A stretch of 55,715 bases of DNA, filler included, from Moniliella sp. 'wahieum' (taxonomy: Eukaryota), in the NCBI GenBank assembly GCA_003971905.1. It is 3 parts of 3 records of this genome, joined end to end, with 100 filler letters (N's around TTAATTAATTAA, not from the genome) between each part and the next. Parts side by side here need not be neighbours in the genome. Positions count along the whole stretch, not along the records: positions 15,018 to 29,017 come from RSEE01000204.1; 2 more parts are not named here. One strand, written 5' to 3'. The position numbers and the translations under genes were made by a program. Shown here in pieces: positions 88 through 51,248 of the stretch. Every line of letters begins with the position of its first letter. Position 1 is the first letter of the stretch. The notes under the pieces are model-generated. The model saw only the letters and a program-made list of their open reading frames with translations, was not told the origin of the DNA and ran no database searches.

Positions 88-2957
88 TTACTCCCTCGTC
101 GGCGGTCGGGTCTCCGTAGAGGAAGATCCCGCACGCTGCCGGCGCGTCACGCGCAGCGTCGGCGATCGCAGTGGCCGTCAGGGAGTGGGTCGGGTCCGAT
201 GCGTAGCCCCGCGCGCCCTTGTCCGGCACAGCCCACCCGGCCGCAACCAGGTCGCGGTTGATGCTCTGAGCAGGGTCGAGGATGCGCTCGTCATTGGGAT
301 CAAGAGAACCACATGCAAAAGCCCCGAAGACGAAGCTGGCACCGCCGCCGCCTTGCCGCCCCACGCCTTCTTCGCAGGACCGCCTTCGCGATGGACAATG
401 CGCGCGAGCAATTGCGGTCCTCGACTGCCTGGCGGAACGCCCAAATCGCATCCGCCGCATCCTCCCCAGGCGTGTCCCACAGCTGGGCAAAGGCCAAGCG
501 CGCCTCGGATGCCTGGGCTGGGAAGACGGGTTCGGCCAAAGCGCGAGTCCAAAGCACGGATGGCCGAAGGGGAACCTCGGTCACCGTACCCGATCAGCCA
601 AGTGAACCTTCACCCCCTTTTGCCCCGGGCTCGGCTTCTGCACCACTGCCCGCACCCATTCGCCTCCCTGCTGCGCCGCCACCCAATCCCCTGGCCCGGC
701 TTGGGTGGCTACCACGGGGGGCAGCCTGGGTCGAAGCGAGGGACAACTCGGCAACCAGCTGTTCCAGTTCCGAGGCGGCTGACAAGAGCTGGACGCTGAA
801 GCAAATCGTTCTCTTCTCCCCCATCGCCTCGAATGTTGGTAACGCGTACCTCGGCGTACTCGGCCTGCGGCTTGGTGGGGGCGGGGCGGCAGCGGCGGCC
901 GCCGCGCTGCGCCTCTTCTTTCCAGATTCCCTTGCCCTCAGCCTTAGCTTCCTCTTCAGCAGCATACAGCTCATTGACAAAGTCCAAACGTCGCCGTGGA
1001 ATGCACTTCGGCGAACCTTGCCGGACAAGGTCAAGGGCATAGTTGTCATTGTGCGACAGGTAAAGAACACCAATAAACGCACCAGTCCGATCGGTAGCAT
1101 GGACCTCAAATGTAACATCCGCTGGGAGAGATGAAGTTGAGCATAATGCAATCCTCCGCTGCGCCGGGGGGTCCCGCTCACAGAGCCCTGGCGCGCAGTG
1201 CGAGGCGCACGGACACCAGCCAAAACGAGTGTCAAACGCAACATTTTCCCGAGGGACGTACACCCCACCCGGGTGGGCTAGCCACGTGCTCCACCACACC
1301 TTCCAGCTTACCAGCCCGCTTGAAGCCACTGAGGAAGGTGTTGGCCCGCGCGGCAGTCTCACTGGCTTCGGCCACACGGGGCTGGAGCTTGGCCTGGCCA
1401 GAGTGGAGGCCCTTATGTGCGGCGAGCGCGGTGGCCTCGGCCGTGACCAGATCCGTGTAACCCGCCGCCACATCCTCGTCGTCCTTGCGGTGCCGGTGGA
1501 TTAGCAGCAACCCCTGCGCCACCAACTGTTCCCCAGCGAGGCCGAGAACCTTTCTTCTGTTCAAGCTAAACACAGTACCGCACACTTTCTCCCCATACTC
1601 GCCATCTCGCGGTTTGATGTAGTCCACCACGACCCGCACAGGCTTGCAATCGTCTTGGAACGCAACCACTCCGCGCCCTGCGGCGTACCCTGCAGCTGCT
1701 CATCTTTAGCTTGCGGCGCACGAAGCGAAGCAAAAAAGATGCGCTGCTCGGCGCCCCCATCACTGGGCGCAATCAAAAGCGAATCGGGAGAAACAACACG
1801 AACGACGGTTCCTTCCAATACACTTCCTTTGCTCAGCACCCGGCCATTGATCTTGATCCCGGCCCCGGACGAAGTGTTGGTGGGTGCCGCACGAGAGGGA
1901 GGGAGTGGTCAGGTTGGCCCAAAGACCACGGCGTGCTCTTTAGCCACCCGTTTCGGCGGCACGGTACTGCTCCATCTTGCCTGGGAAGCCCGCATTAACG
2001 ACACCGGCATGCCAGTCGATGACCTTGCCAAGCCAGCGGCAAGGAGGAACTGAGCAATGTCGCCGGCAGGGTGAAGAACCGTTCCGATAAGGTGTGACGC
2101 CGCTTGCGGAGGTTCCTCCGCCGCCGTCTTTCCATTCCCAGCCAAGAGGGTGCTCATCGCAGGTGCAGCGGATGCGTTGGGCGGGAGCGAAAGAAGACGA
2201 ACTTTGACGGTCCGCTGGAGAAGCTTGTCCTCGACAAAGCGCGCGGCCTCTTTTCCCAAAGCCTCGTTCGTCGCATCGTCCGGTGAAGCGAGTTGTAGCG
2301 TGGCGCACGCGCACCAGCAAGTCCCAGGTTGAGCATCTGGTGTTCCTGCGGCGAGAGCAGCAGCCGCACACGCAGCATCGACCCGTCCTTGACCTGCTCA
2401 ACCACCGCATCGATCAACTCGTCCTTGTGAGCAGTAAAGAAAGGCAGCGTTGGCGCCGGCATGTCGCGCTGCCATTGGGACGGGGGAGGGATGGGCGCCC
2501 AGAGTCCGCGAGCAGCCTGCTGGGCCTGGCTCTGAGCATTGCGCAGCGGCTCGCGCCATGCATCTTCCGCGGAAGCGGCGGGCGTGCGACCTTCGTGAAC
2601 CCGGGCAGCTCCCTGCGTAATCAACTCAACAGCCACGTTGCGGTCCGGCTGTCCAGCCGCAACCGGCGGCAGAAACACATGCGCATACTCCCGCGGGCCC
2701 GAACCGTCGGGGCCGGCAGAGGGGACAGTGTAGGCGGGGCGCCAGCGCACAGGTTGCCCACCGCAAGGACACGGAGGGCCTCGCGGGCAGCATACGCGCC
2801 AGGCTCGTCGGGGGATCACGCGAACCGAGACGCGGTGCTTGGATGCCGGCGACGTGGAGCATAACGGGCGGAGTGTCGGGTGCCGCGCCGGCAGGAAGGA
2901 CAAGGAGCGTGTCGCCGCTAGGGACGCTGCGCACCGTCCCGGGAAGAGGGCAACCAT
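88..2957 (-). CDS. SND1: Staphylococcal nuclease domain-containing protein 1 (Tudor-SN), frameshifted by sequence errors
   Basis: Successive minus-strand fragments give SNase repeats (GTVRSVPSGDTL, AVVEQVKDGSMLRVRL, EAARFVEDKLLQRTVKVRL, GTVVRVVSPDSL, VRVVVDYIKPRDGEY, LPADVTFEVHATDRTGAFIGVL), then a Tudor/SN5 region ending GIFLYGDPTADE. ATG at 2957. Confidence 0.9.
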
Positions 2958-3216
2958 GATGGAAGATCTGGCGGTGGTGGTGAGAAGGGAGGGGGATGGA
3001 GGCGGGGGGGGAGGGGGAGAAGGAGTGAAGGAAGTGGTGGTGTGGGGGGGGGGCGGGCTGCATCTGGCGCTGGATGGATCAACCGTGGATCCATCCATCG
3101 CACCTGCTCCACCTACACTGGCCCCATGCCCCGGCGGCACCACACGACGCGGGTTCCGCGCCATTCCGCGCGGTGCCACGTGGGCGCTGCGCAGAGCAGC
3201 GGCAAGTGGGGCGACG

Positions 3217-3240
3217 TGACGCGTGACGCGTGAGATCTGA
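3217..3240. promoter_or_regulatory. TNA-palindrome array TGA-CGCG-TGA-CGCG-TGA-GATC-TGA upstream of SND1
   Basis: Read directly, about 260 bp 5' of the SND1 ATG. The regulatory role is inferred from position only. Confidence 0.5.
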
Positions 3241-3718
3241 GAAGAAATGGGATGGGGCGTGTGCTGGACAGGGCGAGCTATCATAGGTGTGGCAGCTATG
3301 GCTGCTACGTCCGCTTGGTTCCCTGTGGCGCAGATTGATCATTCGTGCGGTCCCGAACGCAGCATTCGACACGCTCCGTCCGACCCGCCTCCAGAGGCGG
3401 CGCGAGGCAATGCGCATGCTCTGCGAGAAGAAGTGGTGGTGGATCCTACCAGCAAGAAGTGCATTGGGCCATCCTGGTGCGCGCACAACACGCTATCCAC
3501 GGTGCAGGGGTGACCGGTGATGGCCCAGAGAGAAACGTGCGAAGAGTCTTCAGGGTTACAGAACAGATGGCCATCCCGTCGTCAGGCAATGGTGCCATAC
3601 TGTCGTTTCCAGTCAGCCATCCCGTCTCGCCACAGCAGCCCTTGCGAAGCGCTTCACTGTGTCCGCAGCAAGAGCAACAAACAGATCAAACAGAACAGAA
3701 AAAAGACATACCGTCGAG

Positions 3719-14917: not shown

Positions 14918-15017
14918 NNNNNNNNNNNNNNNNNNNNNNNNNNNNNNNNNNNNNNNNNNNNTTAATTAATTAANNNNNNNNNNNNNNNNNNNNNNNNNNN
15001 NNNNNNNNNNNNNNNNN
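14918..15017. other. Artificial contig-joining linker
   Basis: 44 N + TTAATTAATTAA (stops in all six frames) + 44 N. Confidence 0.97.
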
Positions 15018-20213: not shown

Positions 20214-23200
20214 TCATCGACCCCAGGACCCCTCCGAGGATGAACTTGGAGACAGAAATGAGGTGAACAAATCGTCTAACTGCTGCCGCTCCCTTGTGCG
20301 TCTCCGTGTGACCCGTTCGTCTCTGGGGGATGAGGGCCTTGGACGTTTGCGCCGCCTCGGCTGCTCGGTGGAGGTGGGCGGATCAAAGCGAGGAGCGGGT
20401 AGGGAAGGCGTCGCATCTACCTGGGCGGCAGCTGCGTTAGCCTCGGGCTGGATCTGGCGTTGGGGCTGCGGAAGCCTAGGCTGTGGAGGGGGCGAAGGGC
20501 TGGCAAGCGTCGCTGGCACTGGGGTAAGTAGAGGGCAAACACGGGCCTTGGAGCTGGCACGCAGTACATGGTTGGGCGCCATCCACGTTTTCACACCGCA
20601 TGGGACGCGCATAGAGGCAGGTGGTCACCGCCTCCATGAGGCAATGGGAGGTGTGCAGCCAATGCGCTACGTTGCCCACATAGATCCGATTTTCATTCGT
20701 ACTTGGATGCTGTAGCTCATGGCGCACCTGGTCTTTGGAGGCGAGAATGATCAGTTGGCCTCGTTCGCCTGCGCCTCTGGCTGCCAGGGCGGCCGCCTGG
20801 ATCAAGTCGAGACCAGTAAATGGGACACCCACCCAAATAACCTTGTCGCAGTCAGGCACGTCCACACATACGGAAAGCTCGCTGGTTCCCACAAGCACCA
20901 CTTCGTCACCGTGCACAAATTTTACCAGGTCCTCCGCCCCTTCTTCCACCTCGGCAGCATGGGTGTCGCCTACCCGGGACGATGCGGGAAGGGGGAGGAG
21001 GTAGTACTAACGAACGAGCAAAGGATGAATTAGAATTAGCAAACAATCGAATTGAGAACGAGTGAGAAAGACGCACTGGAACAGCAAGGTGGGATGCGAT
21101 TGTCTTTGCTTCGCTGCGCGAGTTGGCGATGATGATGGCGCGGCGAGTGCAGGTGGTCGACATGGGTTTTTGCGCCAAGCATTTCGGGCTTCAAGGTGCA
21201 CGGATAACAGACGAGACAATGTGGCATGCGCGCCAGTCGGGTCTGGCGCGTGGTATACATACTGCACTCGGGCCGAAGGACTGGCGGGTTAAAATGGGAA
21301 AACTTAACGAGGCGGTCTTTTGACAACATTAACTCCAGCTCCTCCACAATCCCGCGCGGCGCCGTGGCTGAGAGTGCAAGGAGGCGTGTATGGGCAAGAA
21401 AGGGGGGAAGGAAGGAAATGTTGTCCAACTCGCTTTGCAAGTGGCGTTGCAGAGGGATGAGATGTGCTTCTTCCAGTACAATCCGTTCGAGCCGCTTGTG
21501 CTGGGATAGGGAGCGGAGAAGGTCGGCGAAATTTCTGTGGACGAGGTGGCCAACGGTTGTGAGCAAAATGCGGGTCCCTTGTTTTAGCTGAAGAACTGGG
21601 GGTGGCATTAGCATGGGGGGGCTGCCAGCACTCAAACTTGATCCGGTGTTGGAGCAAGTGGCACTCAATGGCGGCAAGCATGCTGGGCAGGGGTACGAGG
21701 ATGACATGCACCATGTCAGGTGCAGCGGTGATGGCTGGGATGAGCCACAGGGCGGTGCGGCTTGTTCCGGGTGCCAAACTGATCATGGATGCAGCGCCAA
21801 CAGGATCAAAGAATACGCGCTCGAGACCTTCCTGTTGGGTCTCTGTCAGACCGCCAAGGCCAAAAAGGCGGTGACCGGCCTCACGCGCGGCTGCAAGGCG
21901 AGTCCAGGGAGATGCCTCTGGGACGTCAGGCAGTGGGGTCGGGGGAAAGGTAGGAAGGGGGGGGAGGGTGAGCTGAAGAACATTCTCTTGCCAGTCGCGG
22001 CTGACGAGGCGAGCAAGAGGCAATGGGGCCAAGTCGAGATATCCCAGCTGATCGACGCTTCGACCATAGGCCAAGGGGTTGGGGTTAGATGAACGGCCTG
22101 CTTGGGTCGCCTGGCCAGCCAGACGCGGTCGCGCTGTCTGCGCGTGTGCTGTGCTGAAGTGCCGGGAGACTGGGGTCGTCCTCGCGGTCTATCCAGATTG
22201 ACCGAATCCATCGAGGCCCTGCTGTTGGCCAAAGAGAGCGTAGGTGCGCTGGCCCTTGGATACGACCTAGAGTAGTGGAGCCACATACGCGACGTAATCG
22301 CCCTAGCCACGACCTCGTCGGGCCAATTGGCACGCAGAGCGTTGGTGATGTGCATGGCTGATAGCTTTTTGGAGCGGGCAGTAACGAAGAGTTGGGGTTG
22401 GCAAACAGGCACGCTGCTGGCTTAGTGCCAGGTTGTGACGCAGCAGATCGGTGTAGGGTCGGACAAGAAGCAAGTAGGCCTTGAGCACCTTGGCTGTCGT
22501 CGGATCGGGAAAGCGGGTAGAGTGGAGGGTAGCCTCGGGGCTGTCTTCCATGGCCGACATGCTGCGCCGCATGACAAGAAAGACCTCATCGCCAGCAACG
22601 TAGATGCTGCGGGTGTTGGACAATTCATTTAAACAGCGCACATCCACCGTGTCTGCAACCGAAGGCGAGACGCCCCGAGCAGACATGAATGGCCAAGGCG
22701 AGCTGGACCAGAAAGGACTCCTCTAGCTTGAGGATAAGCTTTTCGAGTATGAGCTGAGCCTTATCGTCGAGCCGCTCGTGATGAACAATGGACTCGAAAA
22801 CGTGGCGGAGGTCACGATCTTGGGCGAGACGAAGATTTGAGGCTCAGTGGCAAACGAGTAGCCGACTGCGTGATTGTTGAACATGTCTTTCAAATCATGA
22901 CGGTAAACTGGATGCTTGTCGAAGAGAGAGGCATACCGTTTAGTGCGCCCAATAGTAATCAGCTTGAGGAAGGCATCTTCGAGTCGGACAAGGATTGAAT
23001 TGGCAAACACGCAGAGATGGTGGTGAGGGATGATTAGGCCATTCGGCAAGGTTGTCTGGTCAGGTCGATAAACAAACGTGCCGATGTCATTCCCATGCAA
23101 GGCGCGGACACGACTAGCATACTGCAATACCTTTGCAATTTGGCCAGCGACACCGGCAGAGTTCAAGACCAAGTGGTTCTTCTGATAGTCAATCAATTCC

Positions 23201-25411
23201 TTCTGGACATGTACCGGATCTGGAAGGGTGGGCAGGTGCCTTGAACGATGATGCAATAAGGAAAAGACAGAAAGGCGAAGACACCACATCAGCCCGGCCA
23301 TAGTGGAAGAGACGTTCTTGGGTGCCTGGAAGACCAAAGAGCCTCCTCTGCCCTGTGTCTCTGCTTCAACTTCAGTGTGCGCCTCCCTGCGCTTCCAGGA
23401 ACTCGGGTTTTGTTCTGCCGTGTCTTGCACCTCGACGTCGTCAAGCTCGTCTTCCTCTAACTCATCCCCTCGAGGCCGCCGTCGCCATCCGGCACCTCCA
23501 AAATCCCCTCCACACGCACGAGGACCGCCGGAGACGGTGCATTGGCCAACGGCCCGTCGGGCTGGGCGGGTGCCAAATGGCAAGACACTGGCTGAAGGCA
23601 AAGAGCCACATGGGGCCAACCTCCTCCAGGAGGGGCATCCATGGCTGCGTCACTACCACATCAAGCCAAATACCAATGCGAGCAAAGAGCGGGTCAGAAC
23701 TCAGTCGGGTAGCGTCAGGGGCGTCCGGCGGCGGCGTCCACACCGAACCGGAGACGACATCTTCCAGCAAGTCCGCAAGCGGGGTCGAAGTCTCTTCATA
23801 TCCCTCCCGGGCCAGTGGCGGGCATAGGCCTGCTCATGCCTCGGCAAGACCCTCGCGGCTAGAGTGGCGAGCGGGTGCTGTTGCTGCGTGCCCAATGAGG
23901 CGCGAGCGTACAAAAGGAAGCGGGTGAAAACAAGGCAGTCAGCGAGCGTAGCAGTGTAGTTCCTCAGTGTGACAGCTTGGATCTGGAGGCCTGAATGAAA
24001 CTGGGAAGAGGTCGACTCGGCGCCGGGGGCGGGGAGCAAGTGTTGAAATGGATGAGCATAGTCCAATACCTCAGTGGCCCAGGTCACCAAGGTGGCTGCA
24101 GCTTGTTGTCGCTGCGGGCGCAAGCCTGGAAGCTGCCGCGCTTGGGCCAGCGCCATCAACGGCACGCCACCAAAGAGTCGGGAGACGTGCCAGATGCTCG
24201 CAAAAGAGCCCATCCGCTGCTCCTCGTCTGTGATTCGGGTCAAAGAATCAGCGCTTGACAACTGTGGCCCCATGACAGGCGCTACCTGATGTGCAACGTC
24301 GATGGCTCTCCTCAAAGGCCCTCGTTGATTCGGCCGCACGGCGTGGGTCGGGACCTGGCGCAACGTTGTGAAATCCGGCTCAGGGTTGGCGGACGGTTCA
24401 TTCCGGAAGGGGCTAGAAGAGCGATCCGCACGGCCCCTACGGACCTCTTCGTGCATGGCAGTTTCCTGGCCAGCCGAATCAGCGTTCCCTGCATCCTCTC
24501 GGGCCTGCACGCGGCTTCTGCTTCCAGCTTGCACATTCTGGACGGAGCCTGAGGGCCAATCAAGAGCATTCTGGCCTTGCTGGACAGCAGCGGGGAGGCG
24601 AGGCAAGCGACGCTGGGCTCCGGAGATTCTGTCAGATGGAACAATCGCACGCCTGATATGGAAAGTCAAGCGTTGAACCGGCAGGAGGACCATCCTGTAC
24701 TTGTGACCTGTTTTCGGGCATGTAAAGCTGGCGACTCCTTCATCACATGCAAACACTTGGCGCACACTGCCTCGAGTCCAATGGGAACCAGTTCAATAGG
24801 ATGGATAAGGGAAGGGGGAAACATATCTTCAGTCGGCACGAGCGGTTGGCACGACGGAGGCAAAGTACCCAGAGCACGTCTAGCGGCGCGACAACCCTGT
24901 TTATCAAAGGCGACATGAGTGCCACGTCGTGTGAACTACGGGTGTCAAGTGGGTTTCGGAGACAAAATACTGGCATTCGCGGCAGAAGAGCAGGCGAAGA
25001 CGAGGACAATACTCCATGTCGAGCTTGTCGAGGGCAATGCGGACGATAATGAATGGATCACGAAAATTCGAGGCGGCAACCTGGCCCTTGAGAAGGCTGC
25101 AGACGCGAGCGTGTCGGATGGCGGCAAGAGGGGTCGGGGAGGATGTCAAGCAGGCCGAGCAGGTGTAGCCGCCTGAGCAAGGCAGACAGGGGGTCAGGGC
25201 TGGTAAGGGGCCGTCAGGCGGGATTGGAAGGGCACGTACCAGACTCTGACGGCCGAATGGTGACATGGACGGGGGGCAAGTCGGGGCTCAGCTCGATATC
25301 GATTGAAATGATGTGCAGATGAGCGAATGTGGGAACCGGGGGCGTCGCTGGCGAGCCAGGCGAGGCTGAGTCGGCAGGCGGGGACAAGGGCGAGGCGCCG
25401 GGGAAAGACAT
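20214..25411 (-). CDS. DUF3505-like zinc fingers + tyrosine-recombinase-like region + RecQ-like SF2 helicase (telomere-linked-helicase-like), apparently catalytically degenerate
   Basis: Fingers: GYTCSAC..IRH, LLFCRECQY, PIELVPIGLEAVCAKC. Middle region: TLRNY, AGLMWCLRL, LALAIHVCSG, TRSIYV, TRFPDP..YLLLVRPY, QAVH..AYGRS, SRDW. Helicase: motif Ia VILVPL, II RIVLEEAH, III ALSATAP, IV RAIIIANS, V GTSELSVCVDVPD, Zn-binding C..C..CTAC. Probable GT-AG intron at ~21006-21076. Confidence 0.75.
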
Positions 25412-27364: not shown

Positions 27365-29017
27365 TCAACTGTCAGGCCTGATTCCGTGCTCTTCCGTGCC
27401 CTCCCGTGTTTCCGCGGCGGAGGAACATGTCTCTTCCAGCTTCCCTTCTCTCCCTGACACGACCACAGTGTTGGTCAAGTCATCGCCCAACAAGAAGCGC
27501 TTCCCACCCGGGCACCGTTTCCAGGATCAATGGTGAGAGCGCTGAGGATTTCTACTCGCCGAGTTAATGCGTGCTTTCTAGGTATCCAATCCAAGTCCAA
27601 CCGTGGCTGTCTTGTCGTGCTCGAGATGGATAGGTAAGGAAGCGCAACGGGCGCTGGCATTGATAGTCATCATTTCGCTGCACAGCGCGAGCTATGCCGG
27701 CTTCAATCCCATCAGCTCCTGCAAAGGATAGGCTGCGACCGGCAGATGGCGTTTCAACTGGGCGATGCACTGGGCCAGCACGGCATCTTCCACGTCCTCC
27801 ACCCGCGCCTGGAGCAACATCTTGCTGCCTTCCAACCTGAGGCGTGGACCGTGCCATACGCCCACTCAGACTGGACCTTGCACTTGGGACAAGGTGCGGT
27901 GAACGTATCCCGGGCCAGGTCGGCAAGTTCCTGCTCGTACAAAAGGGCACCATGATCCATCCGCCACAACCTTGTGGGCACAGCATACCGTCGCGCGGGT
28001 CGTGCCATAGCATCGTCCCGTCTTTGCCATGCAATGGCGCCGGGGTGCCCGCTTGCATCGCTGTTCGGATCGCGTGTACCGTCTGCCGACCCGCTCGGCA
28101 GATCGTACATCCACATTCAAATCCATACGTCTCGCGAAGCGTCTTGTCTCGCATATGGAGCGGAGTGGTGGGAGGAAGGTAGGAGGTGGTTACTTCCTTT
28201 CCGGGGGAGATGGGCTGGGTACACACCACGCTGAAACATGCGCCGCGCCCCGCTCCGCTGGGTACCCCCACACGGTGTTGGGCGCGCATGCGTGGTTCAT
28301 CAGAGCAGCCTCGGGCACCACAGCAGTTCCCAACGTGTTGCCCCGTCCATCGAGGAGGGCAAATGCGTTACCATGGTACGTGGCCACAAAGTCCAACAGG
28401 GCCGGGGCGGAAGAGAGAGCATAGTTGTCCAGCACATGGTGCAGGTCCTGCTTAGGGTCCCCGCAGTGCAGGTAGTAAGCCAGCTGACTCGCCGTCTTAC
28501 CCAGCTGGGCTTGTTCTGTGTCTGGCAGCTTGGCACGAGGGTTGGCCAGGTGCTCGATGGCCGCCCAGCGTCCCCGGGTACCCAGGCGGGACCGCTGGAA
28601 CAGCAGCCGCGCCATGCCCCGCACCGACTCGTTCGGCACCTGCGTCAGTCCTTCAGAGTCTCGGTGCTCCTCTCCAACGCCTCTTGTCTTCGCTTGGCAA
28701 ACACTTGGAGTGCGCCACACTCGGTCGCATGGGCATGATCACTCTCCTTGCACACGGTGCTGCAGTACACCATCACACCGCATCGACACTTGCGCGCCGG
28801 ACGGGCGTGTGAGAGACAGCCTCCACATACTTCGGGGAGCATGTTGGTCAGGAGCGAGACCGAGTCGGCTCAAGGCGCAGAATTTCATCTCCTGTTGACG
28901 GGTTAGATCGGCTGAAAAGGGGAAGCCAAGTCGAGGCGAGGGGGAAGACGTACCTTTTTGGAGCACGCGACCGTCGAGCGGAGCCCAGAACAGGCCGCGG
29001 CCCTTGCGTTTGGTCGC
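27365..29017 (-). CDS. SET and MYND domain lysine methyltransferase (SMYD-like), 5' end cut by the contig end
   Basis: KGRGLF; MYND finger CGGC..CRCGVMVYCSTVCKESDHAHATEC; ALMNHACAPN; GKEVTTSYL; post-SET YGFECGCTIC. Confidence 0.85.
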
Positions 29018-29117
29018 NNNNNNNNNNNNNNNNNNNNNNNNNNNNNNNNNNNNNNNNNNNNTTAATTAATTAANNNNNNNNNNNNNNNNNNNNNNNNNNN
29101 NNNNNNNNNNNNNNNNN
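29018..29117. other. Artificial contig-joining linker
   Basis: 44 N + TTAATTAATTAA + 44 N. Confidence 0.97.
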
Positions 29118-29788: not shown

Positions 29789-30035
29789 GCGTGTGACATG
29801 GACATGTGACAGCTGTGATAATGTGACAGGTACCGGTTACCGGTACCACTTAGCACTTAGCGCTTACGTGCTTACGAGTTCTTTTATTAAAAAAGCACAA
29901 GTTCCACATTAAGCGAGGTTATATACTAACCGGTAACCGGTAGGCACGCGTAAGCGCGTAAGCGCTAAGTGCTAAGTGGTACCGGTAACCGGTACCTGTC
30001 ACATTATCACAGCTGTCACATGTCATGTCACACGC
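29789..30035. mobile_element. Fold-back/MITE-like element: ~88-bp near-perfect inverted repeat with a 72-bp AT-rich spacer
   Basis: Arms 29789-29876 and 29949-30035 differ by one substitution and one indel. The inverted repeat is certain; no TSD is seen, so mobility is unproven. Confidence 0.55.
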
Positions 30036-31001: not shown

Positions 31002-31340
31002 TCATCCTTGCTCCATCCTTCCACCAATTCCCTTTGTCCCCCCTCTCCCTTGTCCTCCCCCCCTCTTCTTGTCCTCCCCCCCCTCTTCTTGTCCTCCCCC
31101 CCCTCTTCTTGTCCTCCCCCCCTCTTCTTGTCCTTGCCCCCCACCCCACCTTATTTTTGTCGCAAAGACCCCAATTGCTTTCCACATCTCCTCCTTGCTC
31201 CACCGCTCCGCGGCAGCCTTGTGGCCAGGTCGACGGCAGTGGGGGCACAACCGTGGGCGTGGATTGAGGGGGCACCTTGAAGCAGTGTGGTCGGTGGTGA
31301 CGCAAGGGGGGCACCGGCGGTGAGTACGGGTAGGGGGCAT
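31002..31340 (-). CDS. Small ORF with CCHC zinc knuckle(s), Gag/nucleocapsid-like
   Basis: CPPCVTTDHTASRC is a perfect Cx2Cx4Hx4C. It is followed by CPHCRRPGHKAAAE, which lacks the last Cys. Confidence 0.45.
   Translation of the reverse strand: MPPTRTHRRCPPCVTTDHTASRCPLNPRPRLCPHCRRPGHKAAAERWSKEEMWKAIGVFATKIRWGGGQGQEEGGRTRRGGGGQEEGGEDKKRGGGQGRGGTKGIGGRMEQG
31033..31133. repeat. Polypyrimidine minisatellite (TTGTCCTC(n)TCTTC), about 5 copies
   Basis: Read directly. C-run length varies between copies. Confidence 0.9.
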
Positions 31341-36200: not shown

Positions 36201-37190
36201 GCGTGAATAGAGAAAGCGGCCTCTGGTTGAAGACCTCTGCTGTTGCGGACAAGAAGGAGAAGTGAGTGTGAGCCTTGGGAATTGTATACAAGCTGAATGT
36301 CCCGCCCCTTTTATTCGTTCTCTCGTTCCTTGTCCATCGGGGATATGGAAGCTGTACCAATACATTGTCTATACGTTTCGTGTGCTTTCCTCCGATTGAA
36401 CAGGAGAACCCCGGGGCTTTTGTCGTTATACAGTGCCAGCGTGCAGTGTGGCGCCCACACACACTCTCTTGCCGCTCCTTTTTTGTTTGTAGAGCAAGGA
36501 GAAGTATACTTACACAGAACCAAAAGGATTGTCTAAACGTCTGAACTGTGAACTGCTAACCGAGATTGGACAGGAATGAAAGCGAGTTTGCCTATTCTCC
36601 TTATCCACCCTCCGACGTCACAAACAAGATACTGCTTGAATGAGAGTCCAATGGTTGCGCTTGGATCAATTGATGACCCTCAACATTCGACTTCAGTCAA
36701 GAGACCAAGCCTTAAGTCCTGGAACGAGCCTATGTAGTATTGAGGGAAATGCACTCTCCACACCCCCCCGCATATATATTTCTTCCAAGGGTTGGCTTTT
36801 GCGTAGCGTCACATGTGTGCACAAACCGGACAGCGAAATTCAATGGGAAGCAGTAAAGGCCCCACCATATGGAACGAGGGAGAACGATCTGCATAATCAG
36901 CCAGCTGCCCCTTCTCGTTATTCCATCTCGTATCTACTGTGGAGCCTCCGCAGCCACTCCAAAATCCAATGGCGTGCAACGTTTCGCAACCCGGCCGGAT
37001 ACTATAACGGGGTCAAATTTGAAACTGTGCACGTTCGTTGCCTGCGTCAATTGATTATGATCATCCCATCTTTCCGGGGCAGTATTCGAGTTGTGAGTCA
37101 CAAGTGCACAAATCTCCAAGTCCCAAGCCGGGTTGCGCGCCAAAGGCAGCGACGCCCACACCACCGCCCCCCCTCTACTCGTCAGCCGCG

Positions 37191-39350
37191 ATGGGCTCTC
37201 TCTCCGCCAGCCCGTTTCCCACGACCCCCACACCTTCTGGTCCCCAGCACGTTCGCCTTCCGTCGCACCAGCCAAGTACACGGCCCAGTCTGCGCCCACC
37301 CAGATCTCTCCCACCCTCTCCTCGGTGCCCTTGGCGGAGCGCAGCGATGCCGAGCGCAATGTGCTCATCACCTCCGCCCTTCCCTATGTCAACAATGTGC
37401 CCCATCTCGGCAACATCATTGGATCGACGTTGAGTGCGGATGTGTATGCTCGTTACAGCCGCTCGCGCAACCGCAACACGTTGTACATTTGTGGCACGGA
37501 CGAGTACGGTACGGCGACCGAAACCAAAGCATTGGAAGATGGTGTGACGCCACAGGAGCTGGTGGATAAGTACCACGCCCTTCATAAGATTGCCTACGAC
37601 TGGTTTGATATTGGGTTTGACTATTTTGGCCGCACCACGACCGAGTGGCAAACGAAAATTGCCCAAGACATCTTTCTCAAGCTCCATGCCAATGGCTTTG
37701 TCGAGGAGCGCACCATCACCCAACTGTACTGCGACAAGGACCAGCGCTTCCTGGCGGACCGTTACGTGGAGGGAATTTGTCCCAAGTGTGGTTACGAAGA
37801 TGCACGTGGCGATCAGTGCGACAAGTGTGGCTCCTTGTACGATGCGATGGAGCTGAAGCATCCGCGGTGCAAGACGTGCAACTCGACCCCGCTCCCAAAG
37901 AGACCAAACATATCTTTCTCCGCATCGACTTGCTCCAACCAGCGACCGAGACGTGGGCGCGCCAAGCGGCCGTCGAAGGAGGCTGGAGCAGCAACTCTGT
38001 CCACATTACCGAGAGCTGGTTTAAGGAAGGCCTGCGACCGTTTAGTCTGACGCGTGATCTCAAGTGGGGGGTGAAGGTGCCATTGCCCGGGTACGAGGAC
38101 AAGGTATTTTACGTGTGGTACGATGCACCGATTGGCTATCCATCCATCACGGCCAACTATGCGCCGAGGGTATGGGAGGCGTGGTGGAAGAGCCCGGAGC
38201 AAGTGTCGCTGTACCAGTTTATGGGAAAGGACAATGTTCGCTTCCATACTGTCATCTTCCCCTCGACGTTGATTGGCACCAAGGACAAGTGGACCAAACT
38301 GCAACAGATCAGCACAACCGAGTACCTCCAGTACGAAGGAGGCAAGTTCAGCAAGAGCCGCAACGTTGGAGTATTTGGTGATAAGGCGGCCGAGACAGGG
38401 GTACCGGCCAGCGTATGGCGGTACTATCTCTTGGCCAACCGGCCTGAAACGGCGGATTCCCAGTTCTCCTGGGCCGAGTTTATTGCGCGCAACAAAATGA
38501 ACTCTTGGCCAATCTGGGCAACTTTGTCAACCGCGTTCTGACATTTGTTGCCAAGAACTACCAAGGGATCTTGCCTCCCGTTCCAGCCGAGCTTACCGAT
38601 GCCAAGACCGAAGGACACGCGCTCTACGCGGCGCTGGTCAAGGACGTCAATGTGCTACTGGGCCAGTATGCGGACCATATGGAGGCGGCCCGGTTGCGCG
38701 CTGGGCTTCAAACCGCAATGGCCATCTCGGCCCGGGGCAACCTGTTTTTAACCGAGTCCAAGCTGACCAAGGCGCTGTTTGTCGAGCATCCCACCACGTG
38801 CAACGCCGTGGTTCATGCGACAGTCAGCCTCATCTACCTTCTCAGTGCCGTCGTTGCGCCCTTTATGCCGTCGACCGCCAATGACATTTTGGTTCAGCTC
38901 AACGCACCACCGCGGGCTCTACCCCTTCCCCCAGAGGCCGGACAGAAGGGTGGTATCGGCCATTGGGCCCCGCCAGAGCTACTGGCCGATCACACGATCG
39001 GCAAGCCTAAGCACCTTTTCAAGCCCATCGATCCCAAAATGGAAGAGGTGTGGCGGACCCAGTTTGGCGGAGCTCAAGCCAAGGAGGAGACGGCCAAACC
39101 GGCTCTGAGTAAATCACAAGCAGCCAAGCTTGCGAAAAAGGCCAAAAAGGAAGCAGAGGCGGCGGCGGCGGCCAAGATCCCCAACACTCCCGAAGCCAAG
39201 GCGTTGCAGGCCAAGATTGAAGCACAGGGCGTGGCCGTGCGCGAGGCTAAGGCGGCAGCCAAAGCGGATGACTCCAAGCAGGCGGCTGTCGAGGCCAGCG
39301 TCCAAGAGTTGCTGCAGCTGAAGGAGCAGCTGGCTAAGCTCTCGGTTTGA
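37191..39350 (+). CDS. MES1: Cytosolic methionyl-tRNA synthetase with C-terminal WHEP-like domain
   Basis: [83 protein letters not shown]. Two or three frameshift errors. Confidence 0.96.
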
Positions 39351-49096: not shown

Positions 49097-50201
49097 TTAA
49101 GGAGCGTGGAGGAACTCAAGGAACTTGGGTTGAGCGCCAGCTTGGCCGGCTTGGCAGCGGGCTTGTAGGTGCCAGCAGCCTTGGCGGCGCGGACGTCAGC
49201 CTCGATCTTGCGCTGCACCTTGGCGTACGGGTTAAGACGGTCCATGACGAACTTGTTGCGTAGCGGGTTCTTCTTCTGGTGAAGGGGCGCTTGGTCGCCT
49301 TGGGCCAGCCGGACGAAGCACAGCCTGGATCTCCTCCGAAGCTAGCAGACGCGACACGTCCGTGTTGGTATCTGGCGCGGGGAAGGACGAAGCCCTTCTT
49401 CTGCGCCGAGGCAGCATCGTAGGTGCCAAAGATCGAGTCGAGCTGCTTGAAGGCGGCCTCGGTCCAGATCACAAGCGGCCAAGGTGACCACCGGGCGCGA
49501 GCTGAGGAGGTTAAGGCGGTGAACCGACACGAGCTCCACACCGGGCAGTTGCGGAAAGCGCGGTAGATGCCCTTGTCCTCGTTGTACACAACGAGGGGGC
49601 CGCGGCGCTGCACGTGACGACGGTTGCGCATCTTGCCCTGGCCACGCGGATCTTGCGCGAGTTGGACACCTTGAGCACATCGTCGTAGGCGTTGAGCGCC
49701 TTGAGGAGGGCAACCGCCTCCTTGGTCTTCGAGTAGGACTCGACCTCGGTGGGACACGAGGGGGACCTCGGCAACCTGCTCACGCGGTGCCGCGGGCGAG
49801 AACGAGGGACGGCACGGCGGTCGCAGCCAGAGCCGAAGCATCGCAAACGCTTCTGGTTCTGGTTCGTCTTCACCCCCAGCGGCGCCACACCTTGGTGGGA
49901 GCGAACATGTGACCGCCACGGGCCATGTACCGAACGCAGCCTGGCCATCACGGTGGGTGCCCGAGCCGCCCACACGAGGGATACGGGCCAGAGCACGGCC
50001 GGTGCCCCACGACTCGGCCGAGGTCTGGTGGCCAGCCTTGGTGGAAACGGCTAGGTTGGCGCTTGTTCTTGGCCACCTGGGTGTAAGTATAACTGCACCA
50101 CGTAGGAGCGATCGGAGCGGTGAGAACGGCGGGCAGCGGCAGGCTTGCCCGCTGGCACTGCCGTCAGCAGCGCGGACACTGACAGTCGCACGCGAGGCCA
50201 T
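49097..50201 (-). CDS. RPL4: 60S ribosomal protein L4 (uL4)
   Basis: MASRATVSV, AGHQTSAESWGTGRALARIPRVGGSGTHR, GKMRNRRHVQRRGPLVVY, IWTEAAFKQLD. Many indel errors. Confidence 0.96.
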
Positions 50202-51248
50202 GATGTTTGGAGAAGGTGCTGCTTGGTGGCGAGCCGTCCCGACGCTGCCAGCTGCCACCCCCCCGGCCACCAGCGGCCGTTCGGCGGGGCAGCGGCACCA
50301 ACACAGGCGCAGTGCCTACACTGGAAAGCAACTGCGGCAGTGCTGGCGCTGCGGAAATCATTGCGCCGGGGGAACAACCCTAGTGAATATTGATGTCCCT
50401 CCGGGACCATGCTGGCTCGGTGATTACGCGCACGGTGATGTGCCATTGGCGCTCAATCACATGTCACAACCTCCACATGGTTGGCTTCCCCGCATGGGCA
50501 CCTCAGCCTGCTTCGCTAACTTTCGTTCCATAGGTGGCGTATGATTTGTAGCCTGGCACCTGTGGACGAGGTGGAGGGAAACCAGCTCGCTGCTCCCATT
50601 TCCCAGTGAATCCTCCAGTGGATGATGCAGCCAGCCGTCCCTGCTCCCAACGTCTCCTTCTGGCTCTTTTACCGTGGCTGTAACGGACGGATGCGGGGTA
50701 GATAGTGTTGTGCCTGATGTAGCTGGAGGTTCCGAAAAGCTCAAGACCCAACAAGCGTCGCATGCACTGGCTCATCTATTTCGCCTGTCAGGACCTCATT
50801 CTTATCTTTTTGGTGAGCACTGCTGCGTCAACGACGGATCTGTGGACCGGACGCGGAGGAGCTGTGGCTAGCAAAGGCGATGTTGGTTTAAAGCCCGTGA
50901 TGCATCATTTCCGTCGGCAGCACTGCGTGGACGCACCTGCGAGAAAGAGACGGTTGCGGGTGGATTGTCGCCTGGTGGAGAGGGCATGGCCTGGACATGG
51001 GGCAGGCATATATAGCGTGGTTTAGCTGAAGGGTGGCGCTGCTCTGGTGCAGCATGTGGAGCGTCCGGCAGGCACCGGGCGGGGGTAGCATGAGGCGAGT
51101 GTGGGGGAGCCGCGCAGACACTGCCGCGTGGCGCCGCTCTGCTGCGGCTGGAGCGCAGACGTGGCATGGCTGGCGTGCGGCCTGGCTGCGCCCGGTTGCC
51201 ACCGGCCACGGCGCCACCCGGAGCGGAAGCGCCGGCTGCAGGCTGCTG

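Follow-up and report, generated by a model that had tools for sequence, protein, structure and literature searches.

Genes for telomere-linked RecQ helicases (TLH) have been on record since the late 1990s from chromosome ends in several fungi and in a choanoflagellate. The TLH domain was reportedly defined by Rehmeyer et al. in 2009, as cited through later preprints. The consulted portions of two TLH preprints (10.1101/2024.02.27.582403 and 10.1101/2022.03.07.483234) lay the proteins out as C2H2-type zinc fingers, a family-specific domain of approximately 250 residues before the helicase and a RecQ-type helicase, and give no function for the domain upstream of the helicase. In the consulted part of a study of Colletotrichum (PMC5576322), subtelomeric repeats with helicase and DUF3505 are described, together with incomplete copies away from chromosome ends. 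Here we describe a decayed gene from Moniliella sp. 'wahieum' (assembly GCA_003971905.1) in a stretch of 55,715 nucleotides, denoted as the window, which joins three parts of three records with filler between them. The gene, like its intact relative P0001, has the same order of parts as TLH, whereas known TLH genes lie at chromosome ends and the copy in the window is dead and stands among housekeeping genes. The domain of about 250 residues preceding its helicase probably descends from the catalytic domain of a tyrosine recombinase.

The flagged segment, in which the original prediction saw a cryptic recombinase-like domain, lies inside one decayed gene on the minus strand, from approximately 25215 to 20476 of the window. 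Using the window piece 22723-23310, just upstream of the finding, a phmmer search of 1.84 billion representatives returned two proteins, the intact P0001 of 1373 residues (E 1.8e-10) and a fragment of 206 residues, P0002 (E 4.1e-08). When the relic was compared with P0001 by frameshift-aware alignment, residues 3-1372 extended along window 25215-21074 with 462 of 1280 aligned residues identical (36%), and the best path required 13 frame changes and 2 stops in approximately 4.1 kb. The pieces of the relic are collinear with P0001 according to tblastn, MAFFT and the frameshift-aware alignment, which all agree. Two of the frame changes, near 22672-22674 and at 22422, are clean and leave no room for an intron; at both, neighbouring codons in different frames face neighbouring residues of P0001, which makes them indels rather than introns. 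The window copy is a dead pseudogene relic of a fungal telomere-linked-helicase-type gene. Repeat-induced point mutation was considered as the cause of decay and rejected, the TpA/ApT index (0.51) and the (CpA+TpG)/(ApC+GpT) index (1.42), read against the customary thresholds, being like those of the remaining window.

The peptides on which the original prediction was built are all present on the minus strand across three reading frames. FLVQLALAIHVCSG is read in frame 2 (22673-22843), VSPSVADTVDVRCLN, TRSIYV, VMRRSMS, TRFPDP and YLLLVRPY in frame 0 (22423-22671), QLF and TSRMWLHYS in frame 1 (22191-22421), and LAYGRS and SRDW again in frame 0 (21979-22188), so that the stretch 21980-22843 requires at least four frame changes. 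Their order is genuine and not an accident of reading, since the pieces are collinear on the intact P0001 by tblastn, MAFFT and the frameshift-aware alignment. The prediction had further taken a Ser, a Met and a Leu in the window as decayed forms of the Arg, Lys and Arg that tyrosine recombinases use, and this is what P0001 reads: the Ser codon at 22660..22662 (GVSPS against GVAPR) faces R843 at the Arg I position, the Met codon at 22558..22560 (RRSMS against QRSKTS) faces K879 at the catalytic Lys position, and the Leu codon at 22278-22280 faces R977 at the Arg II position, as seen in tblastn and MAFFT. The last of these belongs to RMWL (22278..22289), which covers the (H/Q)xxR box with Arg opposite Gln974 at the His II position; in the alignments A3 and A4 made by MAFFT, the W and Y of this box (ITSRMWLHYS against LTLQIWRQYT) are invariant. 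For this third position, a gapped alignment with cheap gaps gives an alternative with a 4-residue insertion. P0001 was found independently of the recombinase idea, and by its composition R, K and R would occupy the three named positions with a chance of 1.5e-4. This agreement is the strongest evidence for a recombinase origin in the present analysis.

The remaining positions gave a mixed outcome. The Tyr said to be retained is indeed kept, LAYGRS with its Tyr codon at 22066..22068 facing Y1036 (LLYARS), the preferred nucleophile position. The His said to be retained was taken from the wrong frame: KQAV(H)LTPT is read in frame 1 (22077-22103), while the collinear frame from approximately 22146-22188 onward is frame 0, where QAGRSSNPNPLAYGRS faces QSGHSVQTAQLLYARS of P0001. 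In this collinear frame, an Arg codon (22093..22095; QAGRSS against QSGHSV) stands opposite H1027 at the His III position. The proposed order R..K..HxxR..H..Y stands in the R, K and R positions of P0001, whereas its His came from a wrong frame and its C-terminal register is contested between aligners. The window thus keeps one of the six active-site residues, the Tyr, with Ser, Met, Arg, Leu and Arg at the other five. With these five replaced and with 13 frame changes and 2 stops, the window copy is, judging from its sequence, incapable of the proposed recombinase-helicase activity. In the preferred register, P0001 reads R843, K879, Q974-x-x-R977, H1027 and Y1036, which amounts to five of six canonical residues. 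We chose this register because its spacings are nearest to canonical and because Box II falls on the best-conserved block between P0001 and the window (LRAxWPDxVVA...T...W..Y). Immediately beyond the preferred Tyr comes a second GH...Y-like motif, LGHLTSGTLY in P0001 (1037-1052) and LGYLDLAPLP in the window (22018-22065), and some aligners assigned this region to the His/Tyr box or to Box II. The second motif might have been left behind by an internal duplication, or it may be where the true nucleophile lies.

To compare the domain with known recombinases by profile, 13 Phage_integrase domains of E. coli K-12 served as the reference and residues 813-1069 of P0001, aligned with the window pieces, as the query. 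At default settings, 3 of 100 column shuffles equalled the hhalign score, and realignment left Box I as the aligned part, in register (PRGQELV against LRVSELV). Soft-gap settings, which were picked after the default result had been seen and whose printed probability of 94% is uncalibrated and was not relied on, gave a score of 52.5, reached by none of 100 shuffles (mean 36.8, sd 5.0, maximum 51.4). Under these settings all six catalytic columns of XerD (R148, K172, H244, R247, H270 and Y279) fell on R31, K67, Q162, R165, H215 and Y224 of the domain, that is, on P0001 R843, K879, Q974, R977, H1027 and Y1036. As controls, four other real segments of P0001 scored 35.3-41.4 and the reversed domain 38.2. 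With HMMER, the profile of the 13 domains gave 2.2 bits for the domain, equalled by 8 of 500 shuffles, while four of six real decoy proteins scored from -1.0 to -1.7 and the other two were unreported. The number of identical catalytic residues does not discriminate, as shuffles often reach 3 to 5 of 6. Taken together, the profile tests are marginal, and for the C-terminal half the aligners leave the register unsettled.

Protein language-model neighbours were in line with the same assignment. The top neighbours of the P0001 domain were unnamed Ascomycota clusters at 0.95-0.96. Among the named neighbours, of which 6 of 30 were listed at 0.84-0.86, five carried a recombinase-type family and one had no common family. 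The families in this list were PF00589 Phage_integrase, PF16787 NDC10_II, PF11917 DUF3435 and PF16684 ResT-TelK_cat, with PF00589 clusters ranking top and no named family of another kind. By their clan, PF00589, PF11917 and PF16684 are of recombinase type. For Ndc10/Cbf2, a recombinase-type assignment is given in the part consulted of Kojima and Jurka 2011 (PMC3212892). One third of shuffled proteins also obtain ten neighbours of one clan, and the weight of these neighbours, at the level of a lead, lies in the clan being the one predicted beforehand. In the case of the predicted structures, the AlphaFold2 (AF2) model of the domain before the helicase (alignment A3, 4 rows; predicted local distance difference test (pLDDT) 39.1, predicted template modelling score (pTM) 0.28) was unusable, because only two relatives were found. 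Its order of a helix, three strands and helices, as in the recombinase catalytic domain, counts as no evidence at such a pLDDT, and the model of the upstream region was all-helical with a pLDDT too low to give a fold.

A number of results weigh against a recombinase origin. In Pfam, the whole P0001 showed no recombinase family at E<=0.1, and for residues 813-1069 the sole matches at E<=10 were two weak and unrelated ones; PF00589, PF11917, PF16787, PF16684 and PF12012 were matched neither by P0001 (E<=0.1) nor by the domain (E<=10). PHROGs and NCBIfam returned no family on the domain, and the PDB returned no match at E<=10 either by sequence or by profile. Language-model scores below 0.9 are leads only by the calibration of the tool, and both AF2 models were unusable (domain, pLDDT 39.1; region upstream of it, pLDDT 35.6). 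The default hhalign probability was 0.67% with P 0.084. Under soft gaps the helicase segment of P0001 scored 50.3, near the approximately 52.5 of the domain itself, and at least five identical catalytic residues also occurred in 5 of 120 shuffles. Both MAFFT L-INS-i and HMMER placed SPHELGH (P0001 1041-1045) on Box II, which leaves a Gly at Arg II and no Tyr; the automatic mode of MAFFT did likewise, with two of six residues identical, and G-INS-i yielded K891, H1045 and Y1052. Finally, the preferred register itself has Gln974 at the first His (His II) of HxxR and requires a 27-residue acidic insertion between Arg II and His III.

If the domain were unrelated to tyrosine recombinases, the order of motifs would be a chance resemblance within a helical domain specific to this family. 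Such an account, which we hold to be improbable, fits the silence of Pfam, PHROGs, NCBIfam and the PDB sequences, the marginal profile statistics with a real-protein decoy scoring nearly as high, the disagreement of the aligners and the unusable AF2 models. However, it leaves the R, K and R of an independently found relative to a chance of 1.5e-4, and it has to accommodate four recombinase-type Pfam families, with no other named family, among the named neighbours listed, as well as scores above 97 to 100 of 100 hhalign shuffles and 492 of 500 HMMER shuffles. Descent from a tyrosine recombinase, with or without surviving catalysis, is what we hold with good confidence for the domain before the helicase. 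Within this descent, the domain might be a non-catalytic module that binds DNA or protein throughout the family and helps to place the RecQ helicase on DNA, resembling the domesticated derivatives of Crypton elements (DUF3504 proteins and domain II of Ndc10/Cbf2). The Gln of P0001 at the first His position, the preference of HMMER and MAFFT L-INS-i for a register that puts Gly at Arg II and lacks a Tyr, and NDC10_II among the nearest named neighbours listed all speak for this module, as do the Crypton recombinases, Cbf2 among them, that were repeatedly domesticated and lost their catalytic site according to the portion consulted of PMC3212892. We nevertheless regard it as rather unlikely, since under the register that spacing and the conserved block favour, P0001 retains five of the six catalytic residues, Lys and Tyr among them, and since R, K and R occupy the three predicted positions.

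A gene that is intact in the organism, its frame changes being errors of assembly or sequencing or introns that went unrecognised, is very hard to sustain. In its favour, one frame change stands at a run of four C (22673-22676). Against it stand the 13 frame changes and 2 stops within approximately 4.1 kb, the lack of room for an intron at 22672-22674 and 22422, and the substitutions at five of six catalytic positions, and the neighbouring housekeeping genes give strong and clean Pfam matches, such as that of a methionyl-tRNA synthetase at E 2.3e-71. Taken all together, we favour a dead TLH-type relic whose domain of approximately 250 residues probably derives from a tyrosine-recombinase catalytic domain, and we think it reasonably likely that intact members of the family keep a residue set of the catalytic type. 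The recombinase reading of the domain before the helicase is, on the sequences compared here, probable but short of proof.

The whole relic (20476..25215) presents, in order, a zinc-finger N-terminus, a helical region, the domain of approximately 250 residues and a RecQ-type helicase, the P0001 alignment running to 21074 and a weak Helicase_C match reaching 20476. When its separate open pieces were searched with Pfam, weak remnants only were found (OrsD, DEAD and Helicase_C), and the flagged pieces themselves matched no family. The N-terminal zinc-finger region (24904..25215), weakly OrsD/DUF3505-like, lies on the minus strand, as do all parts of the relic, and it matches residues 7-90 of P0001 by tblastn (E 7e-4). 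The label DUF3505 given to it in the original prediction is borne out in so far as a PF12013 OrsD match exists at 24904-25287 (E=0.0089), and it is weakened by a score of 16.9 bits under a cut-off of 26.6 and by the match being found in one of four N-terminal pieces. The helical region upstream of the recombinase-like part (22850..23310) matches P0001 623-795 and P0002 (phmmer and alignment A2). It is followed by the relic of the domain before the helicase, recombinase-like by motif order (21979..22843), whose four segments in different frames align to P0001 813-1069. The helicase N-lobe remnant of DEAD/RecQ type (21036..21782) matches PF00270 (E 0.0018) and TIGR00614 recQ_fam (E 0.0041), both under curated cut-offs, and the C-lobe remnant (20476..21006) matches PF00271 Helicase_C (E 0.0016, 19.1 bits, cut-off 23.5).

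P0001 itself carries zinc-finger-like motifs at its N-terminus (zf-C2H2_2 E 0.021, under cut-off), and no OrsD match was found in it by Pfam at E<=0.1. Its DEAD domain spans residues 1114-1276 (E 1.2e-12). All 34 matches of its helicase to PDB sequences are named as RecQ-family or generic DNA helicases, RECQ5 being the best (E 1.2e-11), and the NCBIfam models recQ and recQ_fam match at E 1.9e-16 and 3.3e-14, under their full-length cut-offs. Based on these matches, the helicase of P0001 is of RecQ type and C-terminal. Residues 813-1069 directly precede this helicase, whose start is at approximately 1092-1114. From this architecture we infer that the window gene and P0001 are homologous to TLH proteins, and by position and size P0001 813-1069 and window 21979..22843 would be the 'TLH domain'. 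Further relatives were also sought. Word-indexed protein searches with two window pieces found nothing, and one with P0001 600-1100 found P0001 itself only. Pattern matches in two metagenome scans (591 and 239), in viral contigs (23) and in prokaryote genome contigs (19) yielded no confirmed relative, and tblastn of the P0001 domain against phages gave only 4 chance matches, at E=4 and on the opposite strand of tail genes.

We compared the domain with described recombinase systems. With Xer, Cre and lambda-Int (PF00589), the P0001 domain shares Arg I (PRGQEL against LRVSEL of XerD), the Lys on the following strand region, (H/Q)xxR, GH and a Tyr nine residues on. It differs from them in lacking a significant HMM match, in the Gln at His II, in the 27-residue acidic insertion and in the fusion to a helicase. 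Starship 'captain' recombinases (DUF3435, PF11917) are tyrosine recombinases of fungal mobile elements and appear as language-model neighbours at 0.84, whereas P0001 has no PF11917 match in Pfam and no element boundaries were found at the relic in the window; captains are not known to carry a helicase fusion. Telomere resolvases ResT/TelK (PF16684), likewise neighbours at 0.84, offer recombinase-type chemistry at chromosome ends. They differ in being bacterial or phage enzymes that make hairpin telomeres, and no sequence match between them and the P0001 domain was found; fungal telomeres are not hairpins. For ResT, an ATP-dependent unwinding activity is reported in the section consulted of PMC5388405. 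Crypton derivatives (DUF3504 genes and the central domains of Ndc10/Cbf2 and Gcr1) are, in the part consulted of PMC3212892, eukaryotic recombinase-derived domains inside larger host proteins. NDC10_II is a close language-model neighbour of the P0001 domain at 0.86, whereas Pfam matched neither PF16787 nor PF12012 there and no GCR1_C domain was seen; the catalytic residues lost from Crypton derivatives are, under the preferred register, mostly still present in P0001. A link between TLH genes and tyrosine recombinases was not found in the literature searched, most subscription journals lying outside that search. Among the matches listed for tyrosine recombinase, RecQ and telomere, nothing concerned fungal TLH genes, by title or start of the abstract. 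In the portions consulted, the word 'recombinase' is absent from the two TLH preprints (10.1101/2024.02.27.582403 and 10.1101/2022.03.07.483234), and 'integrase' from PMC12857005 and from the first of these preprints.

With regard to the genomic setting, no match to (TTAGGG)3 with at most 1 mismatch was found across the 55.7-kb window and the relic lies among housekeeping genes, so that the relic is interstitial. Since incomplete copies away from chromosome ends are described in the consulted part of PMC5576322, such a location is compatible with descent from the TLH family. A search for terminal repeats and target duplications flanking the relic gave only short pairs of low identity, and neither element boundaries nor further copies were found; the derivation from a mobile element that the original prediction proposed may still be put forward, on inference.

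Among the neighbours, the methionyl-tRNA synthetase gene (37097-39350, plus strand) extends over three overlapping frames, with matches to tRNA-synt_1g (E 2.3e-71 and 4.4e-65), to Anticodon_3 (E 6.6e-13) and, as a remnant, to WHEP-TRS; where the frame switches, near 37885-37928, the overlap of profiles looks like a short fungal intron. A Ribosomal_L4 match in the open frame 49116-50315 (minus strand; E 7.5e-06) is just over the cut-off and fits the housekeeping neighbourhood. SNase domains occur in two open frames, 709-1500 and 2154-3338 (both minus strand; E 2.2e-07 and 4.6e-04), which may form a Tudor-SN-like multi-SNase gene, and an amino-acid transporter gene also lies within the window. 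The gene adjoining the relic (27564-28869, minus strand) has a weak MYND-finger (PF01753 E 0.0084, under cut-off) and, by eye, a SET-like C-terminal cysteine motif, for which Pfam gave no SET match. Four N runs of 44 bases stand as two pairs, 12 bases apart, at 14918-15017 and 29018-29117. Just past the second of these blocks is a near-perfect inverted repeat (29801-30024) with 79-nt arms, 97% complementary, and a 66-nt spacer, which perhaps represents a hairpin or small foldback element. A C-rich tandem array at 31022-31142 contains 5 copies of a CCCCCCTCTTCTTGTCCT-like unit with a period of approximately 20 nt.

For the intact protein we propose that the zinc fingers would bind DNA, that the Tyr would cut one strand via a 3'-phosphotyrosyl link with the Arg/Lys/Arg/His set activating the phosphate, and that, during unwinding or branch migration of the substrate by the fused RecQ motor, the strand would be rejoined; mobility and catalysis are both properties that we infer. 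If the domain before the helicase is a tyrosine recombinase, it would provide concrete and testable chemistry for the multiplication of TLH units among chromosome ends, would make of these units a candidate new class of mobile element in eukaryotes or a candidate domesticated recombinase at telomeres, and would name residues to mutate. To this, the window contributes a blind prediction of three catalytic positions with which an intact relative agrees, and a decayed copy far from telomere repeats. That intact members combine a tyrosine recombinase with a RecQ helicase in one active fusion, nicking and rejoining through phosphotyrosyl chemistry while their own helicase unwinds or branch-migrates, is a tentative and somewhat doubtful extension. 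If true, such a fusion would drive the transposition of a chromosome-end element that spreads itself or, alternatively, would be a self-contained machine for dissolving junctions, functionally like RecQ with a topoisomerase, in telomerase-free end repair, and the dead copy among housekeeping genes would be the fossil left by an insertion that was not at a chromosome end.

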